Assembly: GCA_001761425.1 (NCBI GenBank) | Contig: CP012986.1 | Location: 570,001 to 602,000 of the forward strand | Length of the DNA: 32,000 bases | Direction: 5' to 3' | DNA from: Candidatus Saccharimonadota bacterium | GTDB taxonomy: Archaea; Nanohalarchaeota; Nanosalinia; Nanosalinales; Nanosalinaceae | Shown here: piece after piece, positions 1,618 through 8,316 of the stretch | Layout: each line of letters begins with the position of its first letter | Position numbering within the stretch: position 1 is the stretch's first letter | Notes under the pieces: model-generated | The model's input: only the letters and a program-made list of their open reading frames with translations | What the model was told of the DNA's origin: nothing | Database searches by the model: none | Position numbers and translations under genes: made by a program

Positions 1618-3024
1618 ATGACAAACGTAAAAATAGGCCTTGAGACACACGTACAACTTGATACAGAGACAAAACTTTTCTGCGGATGTCCAAATGAGGA
1701 AACAGAGGAACCGAACACGCATGTATGTGAGACCTGTCTGGGACACCCTGGTTCAAAGCCGAGGCTGAACAGGAAAGTCCTTGAATACGCAGTAAAGACC
1801 TCTCAGGCCTTACAGTGTGATATCAACGAAGATATTTTTTTCTCAAGGAAAACGTACTTTTATCCTGACATGTCCAAGAATTTCCAGATAACACAGTACG
1901 AGGTTCCGGTCGGAGAGGACGGAAGTATCGAGGTCAAGACCGGTGACGAGAAAAGAGAAATCGGTATCAACCGTCTACATATCGAGGAGGATCCGGCGAA
2001 GATGAAACACGAAGGCGGAAGCATTTCCAGCTCCGACTATACCAGGGTAGATTACAACAGAGCAGGCACACCGCTGCTTGAGATCGTGACAGCACCGGAC
2101 TTTGAATCGCCGAAGCAAGCACGGAGTTATCTCCAGCAACTGGCCCAGATGCTGGAATACCTCAAAATCTATCACCCGGAATCAGAGTTCTCCATCAAGT
2201 CAGATGCGAACATCTCGATCGACGGAGGCCAGAGAGTAGAAGTCAAAAACATTACAGGAACCGCAGGGATAGAAAAGGCCTTATCCTATGAGATCACGAG
2301 GCAGAAACAGTTGAAAAAACGTGGCAGGGAAATCACACAGCAGACCAGAAACTATAATGCGGGCCAGGAAATCACAGAAAAGATGAGGGAAAAAGAAGAG
2401 GAGAAAGACTACGGCTACATCTTTGACCCAGACCTGACCAGACAGGAACTCGACAAAGAGTTCAGGGAAAAGCTCAGAGGACAGATCCCGGAGCTTCCAT
2501 ACGAGAAATTCGACCGCTTCCTCGGTGAGTACGGCCTTGCGGAGAAACAGGTCGAGTCCCTGGTAAGAGACCAGCAGATGGCAGATGACTTCGAAAAACT
2601 CGCAGATAAACACGATACAGAAGTTACAGCGTCCTTCATGACAGGAGACCTGAGAAAAGTACTGAACTACAACGATAAAGAGTACAGGGGAGGCCTCAAA
2701 GTTGAATGGATCTCTTACCTTGTAGGCCTTCTTGAAGATGAGGAGATATCCGACAGGAACGCTGAAAAAGTTCTTAGAGAGATAGTCGAAGATCCTCAGA
2801 GCCCTGAACAGATAGTTGAAGATCAGGATCTGAAGAAAGCGGAAGAGTCAGAAGTAGACAGGTTTATCGACGAAGCTATTGATGACAATCCTGATGCGGT
2901 CGAAGACTACAGTTCAGGTGATGAAGGAGCGGTTAACTTCCTGGTAGGCCAGGTCATGAACCTTTCACAGGGCAAGGCCGATCCGAAAACCGCAAGGGAA
3001 AAAATCATAGAAAAACTTGGTTGA
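1618..3024 (+). CDS. gatB: Glu/Asp-tRNA amidotransferase subunit B (GatB)
   Basis: The N-terminus KIGLETHVQLDTETKLFCGCPN is the canonical GatB/GatE cradle start. The C-terminal YqeY-like tail is DDNPDAVEDYSSGDEGAVNFLVGQVMNLSQGKADPK. Confidence 0.9.
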   Translation: MTNVKIGLETHVQLDTETKLFCGCPNEETEEPNTHVCETCLGHPGSKPRLNRKVLEYAVKTSQALQCDINEDIFFSRKTYFYPDMSKNFQITQYEVPVGEDGSIEVKTGDEKREIGINRLHIEEDPAKMKHEGGSISSSDYTRVDYNRAGTPLLEIVTAPDFESPKQARSYLQQLAQMLEYLKIYHPESEFSIKSDANISIDGGQRVEVKNITGTAGIEKALSYEITRQKQLKKRGREITQQTRNYNAGQEITEKMREKEEEKDYGYIFDPDLTRQELDKEFREKLRGQIPELPYEKFDRFLGEYGLAEKQVESLVRDQQMADDFEKLADKHDTEVTASFMTGDLRKVLNYNDKEYRGGLKVEWISYLVGLLEDEEISDRNAEKVLREIVEDPQSPEQIVEDQDLKKAEESEVDRFIDEAIDDNPDAVEDYSSGDEGAVNFLVGQVMNLSQGKADPKTAREKIIEKLG

Positions 3025-3030
3025 ACGGCT

Positions 3031-3375
3031 TTGAAATTCACTGAAGGAGACTCCTACTTCGTAGATGAAAACACAGCGATAACAGATCTCTTTCAAGCCC
3101 CAGAAGACGCGAATTTCGACTCCGCCATCTCCGAAATCAAAGGCTACCACCCGGAAGACGAGGAGAGAAAGAAAATATTTAACGAGAGAAGCCAGAAAGC
3201 CTACTACATTCTCCACGGAAAAGGAAAAGTCTATGCCGGCAAAAAACTCCATGAAGTCGAGGAAGGCGAGTTCGTTTACGTACCTGAGAAGACTCCTCAC
3301 GCGCTTGAAGGCATGTTCAAGGCCTTGATAATAACTTCTCCACCTTTCAATCCTGAAGACGAGGAACTGAGGTGA
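3031..3375 (+). CDS. cupin-fold protein
   Basis: TTG start. The segment GKGKVYAGKKLHEVEEGEFVYVPEKTPHALEG resembles the two-motif cupin_2 barrel. The protein is small (114 aa) and acidic. Confidence 0.55.
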   Translation: MKFTEGDSYFVDENTAITDLFQAPEDANFDSAISEIKGYHPEDEERKKIFNERSQKAYYILHGKGKVYAGKKLHEVEEGEFVYVPEKTPHALEGMFKALIITSPPFNPEDEELR

Positions 3376-3382
3376 AATTTTT

Positions 3383-4279
3383 TTGAAAGCAGACGATTTT
3401 CTACAGGAAAAAGGCCTTGAATTTGAACTAATGGAACAGGAAAATCCTACACTGGACTGTGATGATGCGGCCAGAGAAAGAGGCCTTGAGACAGATCAGA
3501 TCGTCAAGAGTCTGATAATCGAATCGGGGGAAGAAGATTTTCACTGCCTGGTTCCCGGCGACAGAAAGCTTTCCGAGAAAAAATTTGGCCAAGAGTACAG
3601 GATGGCAGATCCTGAAAAATCAGAGGAGATAACCAGTCAGGAATCAGGTACAGTACATCCTTTCGCCTCAGAACTCAAGCATTTCGTGGATGAAAGAATA
3701 CTCGAGAAAGACAGAATCTCTTTTACACGCGGAGACAGGCTTCACGGCGTGATAATCAGACCAGAAGAGTTCAGAAAAGGCCTTAAACTCGCAGACTTTG
3801 ACTGGAAGCGTAAAGACCTGGTAAACGTCACTGAAGAAGAAATAGAAAAGCTGGAGACCGAAGGCCTTTCTGAAGAAGATGCAAAGTTTATCGCCCGGAA
3901 CGCTTTCAGCGAGTTCAAAGCCTTGAACCTGAGTTTTGATGCTGAAAGAATTGGCACAGCCTTGAGAAAGGTTCTCCGTGAAATGGATACTTTTGACGTA
4001 GAAGATGTTTCTGAAATCCTGGAACGAGCGGAGAATGAGACCCATATGCAGCGTCTTTCAAAGGCCCTGGCCGAAGAAGGAGAGCTTCCTAAAGAAAGTG
4101 GTTTCGATCTTGAACAGGTCGTAAAACAGGTTCTGGATGAGAATCCTGATGCAGTAGAAGACTTCGAATCTGGCAGAGACTCTGCCATCAATTTTTTGCT
4201 GGGCCAGGTCATGTCGGAGACAAACGGTAAAGCCGAGGCCTCAAAAGCCGAGGAATTTTTGAGACAACGTCTTGGATGA
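3383..4279 (+). CDS. fusion protein: YbaK/ProX-like aminoacyl-tRNA deacylase domain plus GatB-type helical/YqeY tRNA-binding tail
   Basis: The N-terminal ~135 aa (FLQEKGLEFELMEQ...DQIVKSLIIESGEEDFHCLVPGDRKLSEKKF...GTVHPF...ISFTRGDRLHGVIIRPEEF) has a YbaK/EbsC-like pattern. The C-terminus DENPDAVEDFESGRDSAINFLLGQVMSETNGKAEASK is a clear paralog of the GatB tail at 2880-3020. TTG start. Confidence 0.65.
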   Translation: MKADDFLQEKGLEFELMEQENPTLDCDDAARERGLETDQIVKSLIIESGEEDFHCLVPGDRKLSEKKFGQEYRMADPEKSEEITSQESGTVHPFASELKHFVDERILEKDRISFTRGDRLHGVIIRPEEFRKGLKLADFDWKRKDLVNVTEEEIEKLETEGLSEEDAKFIARNAFSEFKALNLSFDAERIGTALRKVLREMDTFDVEDVSEILERAENETHMQRLSKALAEEGELPKESGFDLEQVVKQVLDENPDAVEDFESGRDSAINFLLGQVMSETNGKAEASKAEEFLRQRLG

Positions 4280-4349: not shown

Positions 4350-5048
4350 ATGGATCTTGAAGGTTTGGTACAGGAAGAAGTCTCTGTCCTCAGATCGAAG
4401 GATTTTGTCGAAGCAGTGGCTGTCGTAGGGAGCTATGCCCGTGATCCAGAAGCCGAACACACGGATATAGATTTTTTCATAATTGTAGATGAGGACTGGA
4501 GGAAGAGAGAAACGGAGAGAGTCGATGAGACAGTGGTTGAAAGGTTTTATAACTCTATGGACGGTGCTGAGGCCTACCTGGAAGGTGATGAATGGTGGAA
4601 GAATTTTCACTGGTTCAAAAATGCTGATGTAAGATACGATCCTGAAGGACTTTTCGATAAGCTTTTGGAGACCGCTGAGGAAAGAAAAAGTGAGGCCCTG
4701 GATCTTTCAGAGGAAGACAAGGATAAGATTCTCTACTCGATCTGGGATCGTTATCAGGACCTGGATTCAGATGATGTAGGAAGACAGAGGTTTCTGATGA
4801 ATGATTTCGTGGATTATCTGGTTCAGAAGAATTTTCTGTTGAAAGGAGAGGTTCCGGTTAAGAGGAATTACCGTCTGGAGAAACTGGAGAGCTTTGATGG
4901 TTACATGTATAAACTGGTTCAGGATTTCCTGATGAGTTCAAGTACTGTGGAGAAAAAGGATAAGCTGGATAAAATGGTGAGTTACATGACTCGAGGCCTT
5001 GGAAGGCCTGGTCCTGAATGGAGTACGGATAGAGAGGATTTTCCCTAG
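4350..5048 (+). CDS. nucleotidyltransferase-fold protein (KNTase/MNT-like) with helical C-terminal domain
   Basis: Polymerase-beta-type NTase motif GSYARDPEAEHTDIDFFIIVDED (G-S-x-n-D-x-D), followed by a ~130-aa helical region. Confidence 0.6.
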   Translation: MDLEGLVQEEVSVLRSKDFVEAVAVVGSYARDPEAEHTDIDFFIIVDEDWRKRETERVDETVVERFYNSMDGAEAYLEGDEWWKNFHWFKNADVRYDPEGLFDKLLETAEERKSEALDLSEEDKDKILYSIWDRYQDLDSDDVGRQRFLMNDFVDYLVQKNFLLKGEVPVKRNYRLEKLESFDGYMYKLVQDFLMSSSTVEKKDKLDKMVSYMTRGLGRPGPEWSTDREDFP

Positions 5049-5316: not shown

Positions 5317-6600
5317 TCATGCAAACATCTCCTCTGGATGCCTGTTCTCACCTGAGAGGAAATCCTTCTCGACCCCTACGTTTCCTTCCTTCAGGTCCGT
5401 GATCGCCTCCTGGAAATCATTCATGGAAACCTCTGCCTCAGATACATCCTCGTATCTTTCCAGAGTGTTGACTGAGGCCTGTCTTACAATCTGCTTGATA
5501 TCTCTTCCTGTAAAGTCCTCATCAAGCTCTTTCGCCACAAGGCCTAGGTCGATATCGTCTTCAAGATCGATCCTTCTGGTATGTACTTTGAGGATCTCTT
5601 CCTTTGACTCAGCGTTCGGCACAGGTACTTCGATCGCTGAAGTCCTGTTCAGAAGTGCTGGATCCATGATATCCGGCGTGTTAGTTGCGAAAATCGATAT
5701 TACGCTTCCATCTTCGCTGTCAAGGCCGTCAAGTTCTGAAAGGAGCTGGGACATTGTCCTTTCAACTTCCTCCCCGCCATGTCTCCGGTCATCCAGTCTC
5801 TTCTTTGCGATAGCATCGATCTCGTCGATGAAAACTATGGCAGGATTGTCTGAGGACCGGGCCTGTTCATACAGACGCTTCACCTTTTTCGCTCCCTCTC
5901 CAATGAACTTTTCAACTAGCTGAGGTCCGTTGATCATGAACATGTCAGCGTCGTACTCGTTGCTTAGTGCTTTGACCAGGTGTGTCTTCCCTGTTCCCGG
6001 CTTTCCGATAAGCAGCATGCTTTTATCCATGTCCATCCCCCATTCCTCGATTTTCTTCTGCTTATCAGAATTTAGCTGCGCTCCGACGTTCGAGGAAAGA
6101 TTTGTGATGACATGATCGAGGCCTCCTACGTCCTGGAAAGTGACATCTGTCCGGATTGGTTCAAATTCTGCGTCACGACCTCTCTCTACAATATCTGTTA
6201 CTTTGAAACTGTTTGGATCCAGAGCTACTTCTGTTCCTGGCTGAAACTCTTTTGCGTCATATCCGTTCGGTACCTCGACTCCATAGCGGCCTTTCATGTT
6301 TCCACTGGCTTCTACCCAGATACGGTCTCCGTCGAATTCGGATACAACTACTCCTCTCAGAACAGGTGTCTTCAGGTTTGTTCCGTTAGGATTCTTATCC
6401 CCTCTGTTCTGCTGTTGCTGGAAGTACTGTGGGAACTGAACCTTCTGCTTTTTCTTGTCCTCTTTTCCTTCCTGTCGCTGTTCCTCCTTCTCTTGATTTT
6501 CTTTCTCTTCTACCTGTTCGGAAGTATTGTCATCAGTCATAGATCTCACCAACTTTTTCGCACGCTGAACTAACTCTCTCAGCCTGATCTCTAAACCCAT
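5317..6600 (-). CDS. pan: AAA+ ATPase, proteasome-activating-nucleotidase-like (coiled coil, OB fold, AAA module)
   Basis: Walker A is GKPGTGKT and Walker B is IVFIDEIDA. The N-terminus has a helical start, an E/K/Q-rich low-complexity stretch, then an OB-like segment (LRGVVVSEFDGDRIWVEASG...GTEVALDPNSFKVTDIV). It is divergent in the arginine-finger region (see findings). Confidence 0.7.
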   Translation of the reverse strand: MGLEIRLRELVQRAKKLVRSMTDDNTSEQVEEKENQEKEEQRQEGKEDKKKQKVQFPQYFQQQQNRGDKNPNGTNLKTPVLRGVVVSEFDGDRIWVEASGNMKGRYGVEVPNGYDAKEFQPGTEVALDPNSFKVTDIVERGRDAEFEPIRTDVTFQDVGGLDHVITNLSSNVGAQLNSDKQKKIEEWGMDMDKSMLLIGKPGTGKTHLVKALSNEYDADMFMINGPQLVEKFIGEGAKKVKRLYEQARSSDNPAIVFIDEIDAIAKKRLDDRRHGGEEVERTMSQLLSELDGLDSEDGSVISIFATNTPDIMDPALLNRTSAIEVPVPNAESKEEILKVHTRRIDLEDDIDLGLVAKELDEDFTGRDIKQIVRQASVNTLERYEDVSEAEVSMNDFQEAITDLKEGNVGVEKDFLSGENRHPEEMFA

Positions 6601-6722: not shown

Positions 6723-8129
6723 ATGAAAAACACAAAAATAGTCTCCACCATAGGACCCTCAACAGACACCAAAAAACAGATCGACAGATTAATCGACGCA
6801 GGAGTAGACGTAATCCGTCAAAACTTCTCCCATGTCAGCCACGAACAACACGAAAAAATATTTGACAGAATCAGGGAAACATCCGAAAAGACAGCAGTCA
6901 TGGCAGATACCAAAGGCCCTGAAATCCGGCTCAGAAAGGTAAAAGAAGGAACAGTGCTGGAACAAGGCCACAAAGTGAAAATAACTGTGGAAGACGTCGA
7001 AGGAGACGAAAACAAACTATCCGTCAACTACAAGGCCTTCCTCGACCACATAGAGTCCGGAGATGAAATCAGGATGGACGATGGTAAGATAGAGCTGGAG
7101 GTCGACAAAGTAGGCGAAACAGCGGAATGTACGGTAGTTTTCGGCGGAGAAGTAACAGACAAAAAAGCAGTTAACGTACCTGGAAAAGACATAGGCCTTT
7201 CGGCGCCGACAGAAAAAGATAGAGAAGATATAAAGTTCGCAGCGGACAAAGGATACGATTTTATCTCTCTAAGTTTCGTGAAAGAGGCCTCTGACGTCGA
7301 AGAAGTAAGAAAGATACTGGAGGAAAATAGTTCCAGCGCCCATATTATCTCAAAGATTGAACACCGGGAAGCTGTGGAAAACTTCGATGAGATACTTAAG
7401 GCCTCAGATGCTTTGATGGTCGCAAGAGGAGATCTCGGGGTAGAGTTGCCTGCTGCCAGGCTCCCCATGATGCAGAAAGAAATGATTGAGAAATGTAACA
7501 GAGCTGGCAAACCGGTAATCACTGCTACCCAGATGCTGGAGTCGATGACAGAAAATCCTACAGCGACGAGAGCCGAGATCTCTGACGTAGCGAACGCTGT
7601 TCTTGACGGATCGGATGCAGTGATGCTTTCAGGTGAGACAGCGATCGGAGACTACCCGGTCAAGACTGTAGAGTTCATGTCAGAGGTTATAGAGGAAACA
7701 GAGCAAACTCTGAAAGGTCATACCCACCATACTGTCAAGGAAAGGCCTGAATCCACACGTGATATCATCTGCAAAAACGTCTGGCAGGCAGCGAGAGACA
7801 ATGAGGCCGGATACATCGTCGCCCATACATCTTCAGGTTCTACAGCCAGAAATATCTCAAAGTACAGGCCTGAAAAACCTGTCATCGCCTTTGCAGACAG
7901 TGAACGTGTCGAGCGACAGCTCAAACTTGCCTGGGGCGTAAGGCCTTACTACGAGGAGTTCCCTGAGGATGTAGAAGGAATGCTTGAGGCCTCAGCTAGA
8001 AGGATGAAGTCTCTGAACCTGGCTGAGGATGATACAGAGCTTGTGATGTCTGCTGGAGTGCCGACCAGGGTTACAGGTACGACCAATATGCTTCAGATCA
8101 GGACGGTCAGCAGTATCCTGAATAACTAG
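6723..8129 (+). CDS. pyk: pyruvate kinase
   Basis: TKIVSTIGPS..., MADTKGPEIRL and MVARGDLGVELP motifs, at full length (468 aa). Confidence 0.9.
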   Translation: MKNTKIVSTIGPSTDTKKQIDRLIDAGVDVIRQNFSHVSHEQHEKIFDRIRETSEKTAVMADTKGPEIRLRKVKEGTVLEQGHKVKITVEDVEGDENKLSVNYKAFLDHIESGDEIRMDDGKIELEVDKVGETAECTVVFGGEVTDKKAVNVPGKDIGLSAPTEKDREDIKFAADKGYDFISLSFVKEASDVEEVRKILEENSSSAHIISKIEHREAVENFDEILKASDALMVARGDLGVELPAARLPMMQKEMIEKCNRAGKPVITATQMLESMTENPTATRAEISDVANAVLDGSDAVMLSGETAIGDYPVKTVEFMSEVIEETEQTLKGHTHHTVKERPESTRDIICKNVWQAARDNEAGYIVAHTSSGSTARNISKYRPEKPVIAFADSERVERQLKLAWGVRPYYEEFPEDVEGMLEASARRMKSLNLAEDDTELVMSAGVPTRVTGTTNMLQIRTVSSILNN

Positions 8130-8175
8130 GCTTTAACAGTAGAAATACGCTGTTAGATCCTCTAAACTTTTGGGA

Positions 8176-8250
8176 CGAACCCGCAGGGATTTGAACCCTG
8201 GGCCTAGCGGTCCGAAGCCGCTCGCTCTGTCCAGGCTGAGCTACGGGTCC
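8176..8250 (-). tRNA. tRNA-Arg (anticodon TCG)
   Basis: The reverse complement GGACCCGTAGCTCAGCCTGGACAGAGCGAGCGGCTTCGGACCGCTAGGCCCAGGGTTCAAATCCCTGCGGGTTCG folds by hand as a cloverleaf. It has a 7-bp acceptor stem, an AGCGG/CCGCT anticodon stem, loop CTTCGGA, and T-arm CAGGG-TTCAAAT-CCCTG. CCA is not encoded. Confidence 0.9.
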
Positions 8251-8316
8251 AGTCTAATATGTTTCAAAAGCTGAAAGGTTAAAAATCAGGTACGCAGATG
8301 GAGAGGGAAAAAGGCC

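Follow-up and report, generated by a model that had tools for sequence, protein, structure and literature searches.

A nanohaloarchaeal protein joining a predicted YbaK/ProX-type deacylase domain to the helical and tail module of GatB

What could be the role of a protein that joins an aminoacyl-tRNA editing fold to the tRNA-docking end of the amidotransferase subunit GatB, and which is encoded shortly downstream of gatB itself? The question is raised by a gene of a nanohaloarchaeon whose 1.12-Mb genome is a single contig; we analyzed contig positions 570001 to 602000, a stretch of 32,000 nucleotides which is named the window below. The database name of the protein is merely 'YbaK/EbsC family protein'. 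The names of its homologs point to the Nanohaloarchaeota, to the vicinity of Candidatus Nanohalobium. Its start codon matches that of its homologs, as the sequence M-K-A-D is found at the same position in an alignment of 16 proteins. In window coordinates, the fusion gene and its parts are:

3383–4279, + strand: fusion gene, 298 residues, TTG start, stop codon included; YbaK/ProX-type domain, GatB helical domain and GatB/YqeY tail
3383–3826, + strand: predicted deacylase domain with INS/YbaK superfamily fold, residues 1–148 (PF04073, structural matches, invariant residues)
3506–3508, + strand: codon of K42
3647–3661, + strand: loop G89-T-V-H-P93
3827–4102, + strand: helical domain, residues 149–240, equivalent to the GatB helical domain (VIA and NCBIfam GatB alignments)
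4103–4276, + strand: tail of the YqeY C-terminal type, residues 241–298 (PF02637; motif N270-x-L-x-G274-Q-V-M277...G282)

The N-terminal domain was assigned by profile, by structure and by conserved residues. The Pfam family tRNA_edit (PF04073) matches residues 21–132 with an E-value of 1.2e-14 and 54.9 bits (cut-off 25.5), covering profile positions 2 to 122/123. All structural comparisons given here are based on an AlphaFold2 model computed from 79 homologs, which has a mean pLDDT (predicted local distance difference test) of 92.4 and a pTM (predicted template modelling score) of 0.71; the Z-values were obtained with VIA. Residues 1–149 of the model superimpose on ProX of Thermus thermophilus (2z0k/2cx5) with a Z-value of 20.5 and a root-mean-square deviation (RMSD) of 1.9 Å for 144 residues; for Aeropyrum pernix APE2540 (1wdv) and Haemophilus influenzae YbaK (1dbx), the Z-values are 20.0 and 19.6. 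Taken together, the ProX and YbaK structures gave Z-values of 19–20.5 and RMSD values of about 1.9 Å for 140–144 residues, and the target-normalised TM-scores (TMt) determined by Foldseek were between 0.78 and 0.84. The best structural match, 2cx5, is tied with 1wdv, 1dbx and 2dxa, and the sequence E-value to 2cx5 is just 0.0026. Residues K42, G59, G89, H92, P93 and G117 are invariant in two alignments, one of 16 fusion proteins and the other of 79. A substrate-binding loop of the form G-x-x-x-P is a hallmark of the INS/YbaK superfamily; here it spans G89 to P93. K42 pairs with the lysine of APE2540 in the alignment; the equivalent lysine (K45 in ProXp-ala, K46 in YbaK) is strictly conserved across the superfamily, and its mutation abolishes deacylation (PMC10164551).

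YbaK in the strict sense was considered as well and ruled out: The score for the YbaK equivalog model TIGR00011 is 36.2 bits and thus far below the cut-off of 153.25, and a maximum-likelihood tree, which was built without reference ProXp-x sequences, places the domain outside the clades with a GG(V/I)SP loop. The N-terminal domain is a member of the INS/YbaK superfamily, but it is not YbaK proper.

The C-terminal half corresponds to GatB. Pfam family GatB_Yqey (PF02637) matches residues 227–297 (E-value 2.7e-16, 60.2 bits, cut-off 27, profile positions 77–148), and the NCBIfam equivalog models of GatB align residues 165–297 to GatB positions 347–480. Aligned with the GatB protein of the same genome (1618–3024), the tail shows 40% identity over 70 residues without any gap (E-value 5e-15). 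Neither the tRNA_edit match nor the GatB matches can be put down to chance. In the model, residues 148–298 superimpose on residues 294–473 of Staphylococcus aureus GatB (3ip4_B) with a Z-value of 10.7. For residues 148–240, which also align to S. aureus GatB 294–406, the comparison with Aquifex aeolicus GatB 297–410 (3h0l_B) gave a Z-value of 9.8 and an RMSD of 2.7 Å for 93 residues; residues 240–297 match the YqeY proteins 8xje and 1ng6 with Z-values of 6.2–6.9 and an RMSD of about 2 Å for 51 residues. For helical folds the Z-values of this half are modest; they agree with the sequence evidence. Residues G264, N270, G274, M277 and G282 of the tail are invariant in the two alignments mentioned above. 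The extended region that carries the motif KxGKxK is specific to GatB and absent in GatE and YqeY; the tail contains this region, and it aligns without gaps to the genome's own GatB. Residues 148–298 are the complete post-cradle region of GatB, that is, the helical domain plus the YqeY tail.

In the fusion protein, Pfam did not match the cradle domain GatB_N, and the full-length GatB equivalogs (TIGR00133/NF004012) gave only 51–54 bits compared to cut-offs of 315–338; a role as GatB subunit was ruled out on these grounds. The superpositions on ProX/YbaK and on GatB lead us to describe the protein, as modeled, as a GatB whose catalytic cradle is replaced by a YbaK/ProX fold. An earlier note on this DNA, made from the letters alone, had read the first ~135 residues as a YbaK/ProX-type domain and the last ~160 as a paralog of the helical and YqeY tail of GatB; profile and structure bear out both assignments, and the invariant catalytic hallmarks K42 and G89-x-x-x-P93 bear out the first. 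Its further statement that the tail of gatB had been duplicated stands only in part: The tail is a paralog, but not a recent copy of the adjacent one, as fusion tails and the GatB tails of Nanohaloarchaeota form separate clades and the identity is just 40%. The tail trees are poorly resolved and leave the source of the fusion tail unplaced.

The genes that precede the fusion gene are:

C1:568124–568393, outside the window: gatC, further upstream
1–369, + strand: 3' end of gatA, whose start lies upstream of the window (TIGR00132 match C1:569014–570369)
308–1591, + strand: polyprenyl diphosphate synthase gene, between gatA and gatB
1618–3024, + strand: gatB, complete amidotransferase B subunit of 468 residues with its own tail (GatB_N, GatB_Yqey, NF004012)
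3031–3375, + strand: cupin gene, 114 residues (Cupin_2, 34.9 bits)

On the + strand, the order is consequently gatC, gatA, polyprenyl synthase gene, gatB, cupin gene and fusion gene. GatB is readily recognized, with 319.7 bits for GatB_N, 122.8 bits for GatB_Yqey and 549.6 bits for NF004012 (cut-off 338). The fusion gene starts 358 nt past the end of gatB, and the gap is filled by the cupin gene, which is separated from gatB by 6 nt and from the fusion gene by 7 nt. The earlier note had placed the deacylase gene beside gatB at a distance of 0.4 kb; the proximity stands, whereas direct adjacency does not hold in this genome. The gatCAB genes are themselves split by the unrelated polyprenyl diphosphate synthase gene; the TTG start listed for the latter overlaps the end of gatA, and its true start is probably farther downstream.

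Is the neighborhood of gatB a peculiarity of this genome? The fusion gene, either in full length or truncated by the end of a contig, occurs in 34 of 70 Nanohaloarchaeota genomes (31 of the 50 in the family of the window, 3 of the 10 in a second family). In 26 of 29 other Nanohaloarchaeota loci, gatB immediately precedes it on the same strand; two of the remaining three are on truncated contigs, and one has no gatB upstream. In many loci the stop codon of gatB and the start codon of the fusion gene overlap by 4 bp, an arrangement that is kept across families f1 and f4; the other spacings are either below 25 bp or 350–470 bp. The longer spacer holds the cupin gene in five genomes, namely this one and those of loci L011, L020, L030 and L039; most other genomes do not have a cupin gene at this place. 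Fusions from non-halophiles (about 13 clusters) were found beyond this phylum, in metagenome-assembled genomes labelled Hydrothermarchaeota or Thermoplasmata; together with the 34 nanohaloarchaeal genomes, this small group makes up the observed taxonomic spread of the combination of tRNA_edit and GatB_Yqey, which the earlier note had proposed to map. A sequence search gave 155 homologs, and the best 120 of these 155 are nearly all about 300 residues long and contain both domains. An exhaustive profile-free search among 1.84 billion cluster representatives returned about ten full-length fusion clusters. The architecture is rare.

A general tendency of ybaK-like genes to neighbor gatB was considered and rejected, as a neighboring ybaK was seen in just 2 of about 76 gatB loci from outside the Nanohaloarchaeota. 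These two (L042, 5977–7873; L083, 4317–6164) are unrelated metagenome contigs with a stand-alone ybaK-like gene, which lies in one case between gatA and gatB, 1 nt before gatB, and in the other 9 nt after gatB; both genes belong to YbaK clades other than that of the fusion.

The closest kin of the N-terminal domain gives a second connection to GatB. In the maximum-likelihood tree, the N-domains of all fusions fall into a single clade (support 100/99). This clade comprises the Nanohaloarchaeota fusions, the Hydrothermarchaeota-type fusions and a few relatives of odd length; the YbaK-like proteins that stand alone in these genomes lie elsewhere in the tree. The clade is sister, with support 91/93, to the YbaK domain of 22 archaeal GatB clusters with lengths of 609–709 residues (P0325, P0140 and P0322–P0342, from uncultured archaea), which combine tRNA_edit, GatB_N and GatB_Yqey in one protein. 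In at least 5 of these 22 clusters, the YbaK domain is inserted between the CxC and the CxxC of the GatB N-terminus. Residues 1–28 of P0325 align to GatB 1–26 and its residues 197–628 to GatB 28–467, leaving an insertion of about 168 residues; since the flanks align to GatB on both sides, the insertion cannot be an artifact of gene calling. In P0342, the YbaK domain is N-terminal in GatB and not inserted. A protein-atlas search with the GatB insertion brought up bacterial YbaK clusters only. An amidotransferase with an internal editing domain was not described in the literature searched. As judged from the sequences, one and the same deacylase lineage has become physically attached to the GatB system by two different routes, and this argues for a functional and not merely positional link. 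The earlier note had drawn such a link from gene position; it is strengthened by the order of genes in most Nanohaloarchaeota and by a sister domain that sits inside GatB.

The idea that the fusion arose when a YbaK-containing GatB lost its cradle found no support, as the tails of insertion-bearing GatBs group, in the poorly resolved tail trees, with ordinary GatB tails and not with those of the fusion. A further idea concerned His92 of the G-T-V-H-P loop, which is invariant across all fusion proteins, whereas the loop reads G-G-V-S-P or G-G-V-P-P in the YbaK-like proteins that stand alone in these genomes. It was not retained as a mark of acidic substrates: Histidine is also found in some unfused YbaKs of other clades, and the GatB-inserted sister domain has G-L-V-P-P where the loop is readable. 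Within the clade of the fusion N-domain (loop G-x-V-H-P-F) there are proteins of other lengths (P0154, 459 residues; P0158, 342; P0145, 324; P0153, 315; P0142, 185), whose extensions are partly unrecognized; P0154 has a weak GatB_Yqey tail at residues 391–455, and P0145 has about 145 additional N-terminal residues.

Which pathway could such a protein serve? Profile searches of the genome, for which the earlier note had pointed to the two synthetases as a check, found neither asparaginyl-tRNA synthetase (AsnRS) nor glutaminyl-tRNA synthetase (GlnRS): The best match of the asnS model is an AspRS-like gene with 274 bits compared to a cut-off of 342.6. The genome contains gatC, gatA, gatB, gatD and a GatE-like gene of 619 residues. 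A second YbaK-like gene is present; its product is stand-alone, has 170 residues and a GGVSPF loop. Every genome also keeps a stand-alone YbaK-like gene of the other clade with a GGVSPF or GGVPPV loop, and the fusion is therefore an extra paralog and not the housekeeping copy of YbaK. Among the 70 genomes, all 34 that bear the fusion lack AsnRS, and all 5 that bear AsnRS lack the fusion. One AsnRS-containing relative (G006:C29; L135, 64–723) has an open reading frame of 220 residues, which the tree places within the clade of fusion N-domains, on a long branch; this frame has neither a recognizable GxxxP loop nor a tail and may be a degenerate or divergent remnant.

Based on the conserved residues and the model, the protein is quite probably an active aminoacyl-tRNA deacylase that is anchored by its tail. 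By analogy with GatB, its tRNA may be tRNA(Asn) or tRNA(Gln), to which we give slightly less than an even chance. For the combined reading, we see a small balance in favor: The protein is predicted to be an active INS/YbaK deacylase anchored by a GatB tail, which would act on aminoacyl-tRNA(Asn) as a safety valve of the indirect Asn pathway. The GatB-type tail would dock on the corner formed by D-loop and variable loop of the tRNA, as in GatB; the helical domain would be a spacer, and the YbaK-like domain, sitting at the position of the GatB cradle, would take the aminoacylated CCA end and cleave its ester bond by hydrolysis, while K42 guides A76 into the pocket. The preferred target would be an aminoacyl-tRNA(Asn), most simply Asp-tRNA(Asn) that escaped amidation, and the protein would be an accessory to the pathway. 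This target is proposed because archaeal GatCAB reads the tRNA core and because the gene lies in the gatB operon, for which co-transcription is predicted. The earlier note had likewise thought of Asp-tRNA(Asn) or Glu-tRNA(Gln) as possible substrates. We infer tRNA binding by the tail, deacylase activity and, above all, the identity of both tRNA and amino acid.

Several published observations agree with these steps. GatB requires its tail in order to bind tRNA; this tail reads the D-loop and probably also, with a motif rich in lysine, the variable loop, and archaeal GatCAB separates tRNA(Asn) from tRNA(Asp) by the tRNA core and not by base pair 1:72 (PMC2811023). A YqeY module fused in cis gives Deinococcus radiodurans GlnRS productive tRNA binding (PMC1865053), and the C-terminal domain of plant ProXp-ala raises tRNA binding (PMC9425024). 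A comparable safeguard is GluRS2 of Helicobacter pylori, which hydrolyzes excess Glu-tRNA(Gln) (PMC3241645). A wider reading is put forward tentatively: The tRNA-dependent Asn pathway of some archaea might possess a dedicated proofreading arm, for which one YbaK-like clade would have been wired into GatB in two ways, namely by fusion to a copy of the GatB helical domain and tail in Nanohaloarchaeota and by insertion into the zinc-binding loop of the cradle in uncultured archaea. Either form would hydrolyze wrongly charged tRNA(Asn) that the amidotransferase leaves unconverted, be it Asp-tRNA(Asn) or another such species, and would thereby keep Asp from being inserted at Asn codons.

A number of points weigh against a safety valve for tRNA(Asn). 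Of the motif KxGKxK, the tail has retained only a part: G264 does not vary, position 265 is usually lysine or arginine, and the other lysines are replaced; in this halophile's own GatB, the Lys-richness of the region is lost likewise. About half of the Nanohaloarchaeota lack the fusion despite the presence of gatB and the absence of AsnRS, among them the complete single-contig genomes G046, G065 and G032; the gene is therefore dispensable, an accessory. The contrast between AsnRS and the fusion fits a link to the indirect pathway only weakly, because the genomes are related and do not constitute an independent test. In the two loci read, the Hydrothermarchaeota-type fusion is not beside gatB. 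Moreover, hydrolysis of an obligate pathway intermediate costs ATP unless it is kinetically gated, and the nearest solved structures, ProX/ProXp-x, act on Ala- or Abu-tRNA (Abu, 2-aminobutyrate); by analogy, the pocket may prefer small neutral residues.

The last point leads to the main rival, which we consider unlikely and nevertheless the most serious one: The protein could be an ordinary editing factor of the ProX/ProXp-x kind, which removes Ala, Cys or Abu from tRNA(Pro) or from several tRNAs; its tail would be a generic affinity enhancer, and its adjacency to gatB a trace of the fusion's origin without functional meaning. The closest solved structures and sequences are indeed those of T. 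thermophilus ProX (2cx5/2z0k; ProXp-x, an Abu/Ala deacylase) and of APE2540, and the ProRS of the genome is of the archaeal type without the editing insertion. However, the stand-alone YbaK-like gene of the other clade, which is found in the same genomes, could do that job. The location of the Hydrothermarchaeota fusions away from gatB speaks for this rival, but a sister clade built into GatB is hard to explain by history alone, and the 4-bp overlap with gatB has been kept across two families. Plant ProXp-ala illustrates that an appended C-terminal domain may simply raise tRNA affinity; the tail of the fusion, in contrast, is of the GatB type and neither that of free YqeY nor that of GatE.

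We regard it as improbable that the protein is a non-hydrolytic accessory of the transamidosome, whose pocket would shield the CCA end while the tail holds the tRNA, in order to protect Asp-tRNA(Asn) or to hand it over to GatCAB, or which would have a regulatory role. The tight operon coupling with gatB and the architecture, which parallels GatB with the cradle replaced, would be compatible with such an accessory, and protection of the ester bond by members of the transamidosome has been described (PMC3241645). Yet K42 and the GxxxP loop, which are needed for hydrolysis in the superfamily, are invariant; furthermore, no non-catalytic binder is known in the INS/YbaK superfamily (review PMC11295145). 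Finally, the TTG start and the position just after a gatB with a homologous tail might suggest an artifact of gene prediction or assembly, or what is left of a partly duplicated and now decaying gatB. This reading is effectively refuted by conservation: Homologs of the same length with 45–81% identity are present in dozens of genomes and metagenomes that are independent of each other, their functional residues are invariant, and their reading frames have no internal stops. In addition, the predicted fold is of high confidence, and the tail clade is distinct from GatB tails.

Farther downstream in the window, the following genes were found, none of which is obviously connected with the fusion gene:

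4350–5048, + strand: protein with a nucleotidyltransferase domain
5317–6600, - strand: AAA ATPase
6723–8129, + strand: pyruvate kinase
8173–8251, - strand: tRNA-Arg(TCG)

Two mechanisms, channelling in the transamidosome and rejection by the elongation factor, are credited with the fidelity of indirect pathways, and to our knowledge no editing enzyme for their mischarged intermediates has been described. The fusion and the YbaK-bearing GatBs make it a testable question whether the indirect pathway is actively proofread. According to a review of 2024, trans-editing proteins of the INS superfamily are single-domain proteins without an RNA-binding domain, which find their substrates by the acceptor stem or by a partner synthetase; plant ProXp-ala with its C-terminal domain and ProRS-fused ProXp-ala are the only exceptions given (PMC11295145). 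Full-text searches of the literature brought up no publication that deals with a YbaK-YqeY or YbaK-GatB protein. If the proposed function is true, this would be the first free-standing YbaK/INS editor with a dedicated reader of the tRNA body, taken from the amidotransferase that makes Asn-tRNA(Asn). It would also be a clear example of modular evolution, in which a catalytic domain was swapped onto a conserved tRNA-docking scaffold.

How does the protein compare with known systems? With regard to the catalytic half, ProXp-x/ProX (TTHA1699, 2CX5/2Z0K) and APE2540 (1WDV) are closest: They have the same fold (Z-values 20–20.5, RMSD 1.9 Å, 23–26% identity), the conserved lysine and the GxxxP loop in common with the fusion, and ProXp-x is a proven Abu/Ala-tRNA deacylase that acts as a free-standing trans-editing enzyme (PMC11295145). 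Both are single domains of about 150–160 residues without an RNA-binding module, whereas the fusion adds 150 residues of GatB helical domain and tail; it further differs by its G-T-V-H-P loop with the invariant histidine and by its separate clade, whose sister is the GatB-inserted domain. YbaK sensu stricto, the Cys-tRNA(Pro) deacylase (H. influenzae 1DBU/1DBX, Escherichia coli 2DXA), has the fold (Z-values 19–19.6) and the superfamily hallmarks in common with the fusion and differs by the equivalog score given above. Unlike what is proposed for the fusion, YbaK finds its substrate via a complex with ProRS and not with a tRNA-binding domain of its own. YbaK proper is bacterial (PMC11295145).

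Plant ProXp-ala with its C-terminal domain, AlaXp-L with C-Ala, and ProRS-fused ProXp-ala are the rare cases of trans-editing domains with an additional domain that raises affinity (PMC9425024, PMC11295145); their appended domains are unrelated to GatB/YqeY, and none of them is linked to the amidotransferase pathway. The remaining systems resemble the fusion in its C-terminal half. The 150 C-terminal residues correspond one-to-one to GatB 294–473 (3IP4_B, 3H0L_B and Thermotoga maritima 3AL0_B), including the motif N-x-L-x-G-Q-x-M...G-K-A, and the predicted logic is that of GatB, with the CCA end served by a catalytic domain, the corner of the tRNA bound by a tail, and a helical spacer in between. 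The difference is that the GatB_N cradle with its kinase and transamidase functions is replaced by a hydrolase fold, and that KxGKxK is kept only in part. In the D. radiodurans GlnRS-YqeY protein (2HZ7), whose YqeY domain is needed for productive tRNA(Gln) binding (PMC1865053), and in eukaryotic GlnRS with its N-terminal domain (4YE6, 3TL4), the same module has been recruited in cis. There, however, the partner is a synthetase that makes aminoacyl-tRNA, whereas the partner in the fusion is a predicted deacylase that would destroy it.

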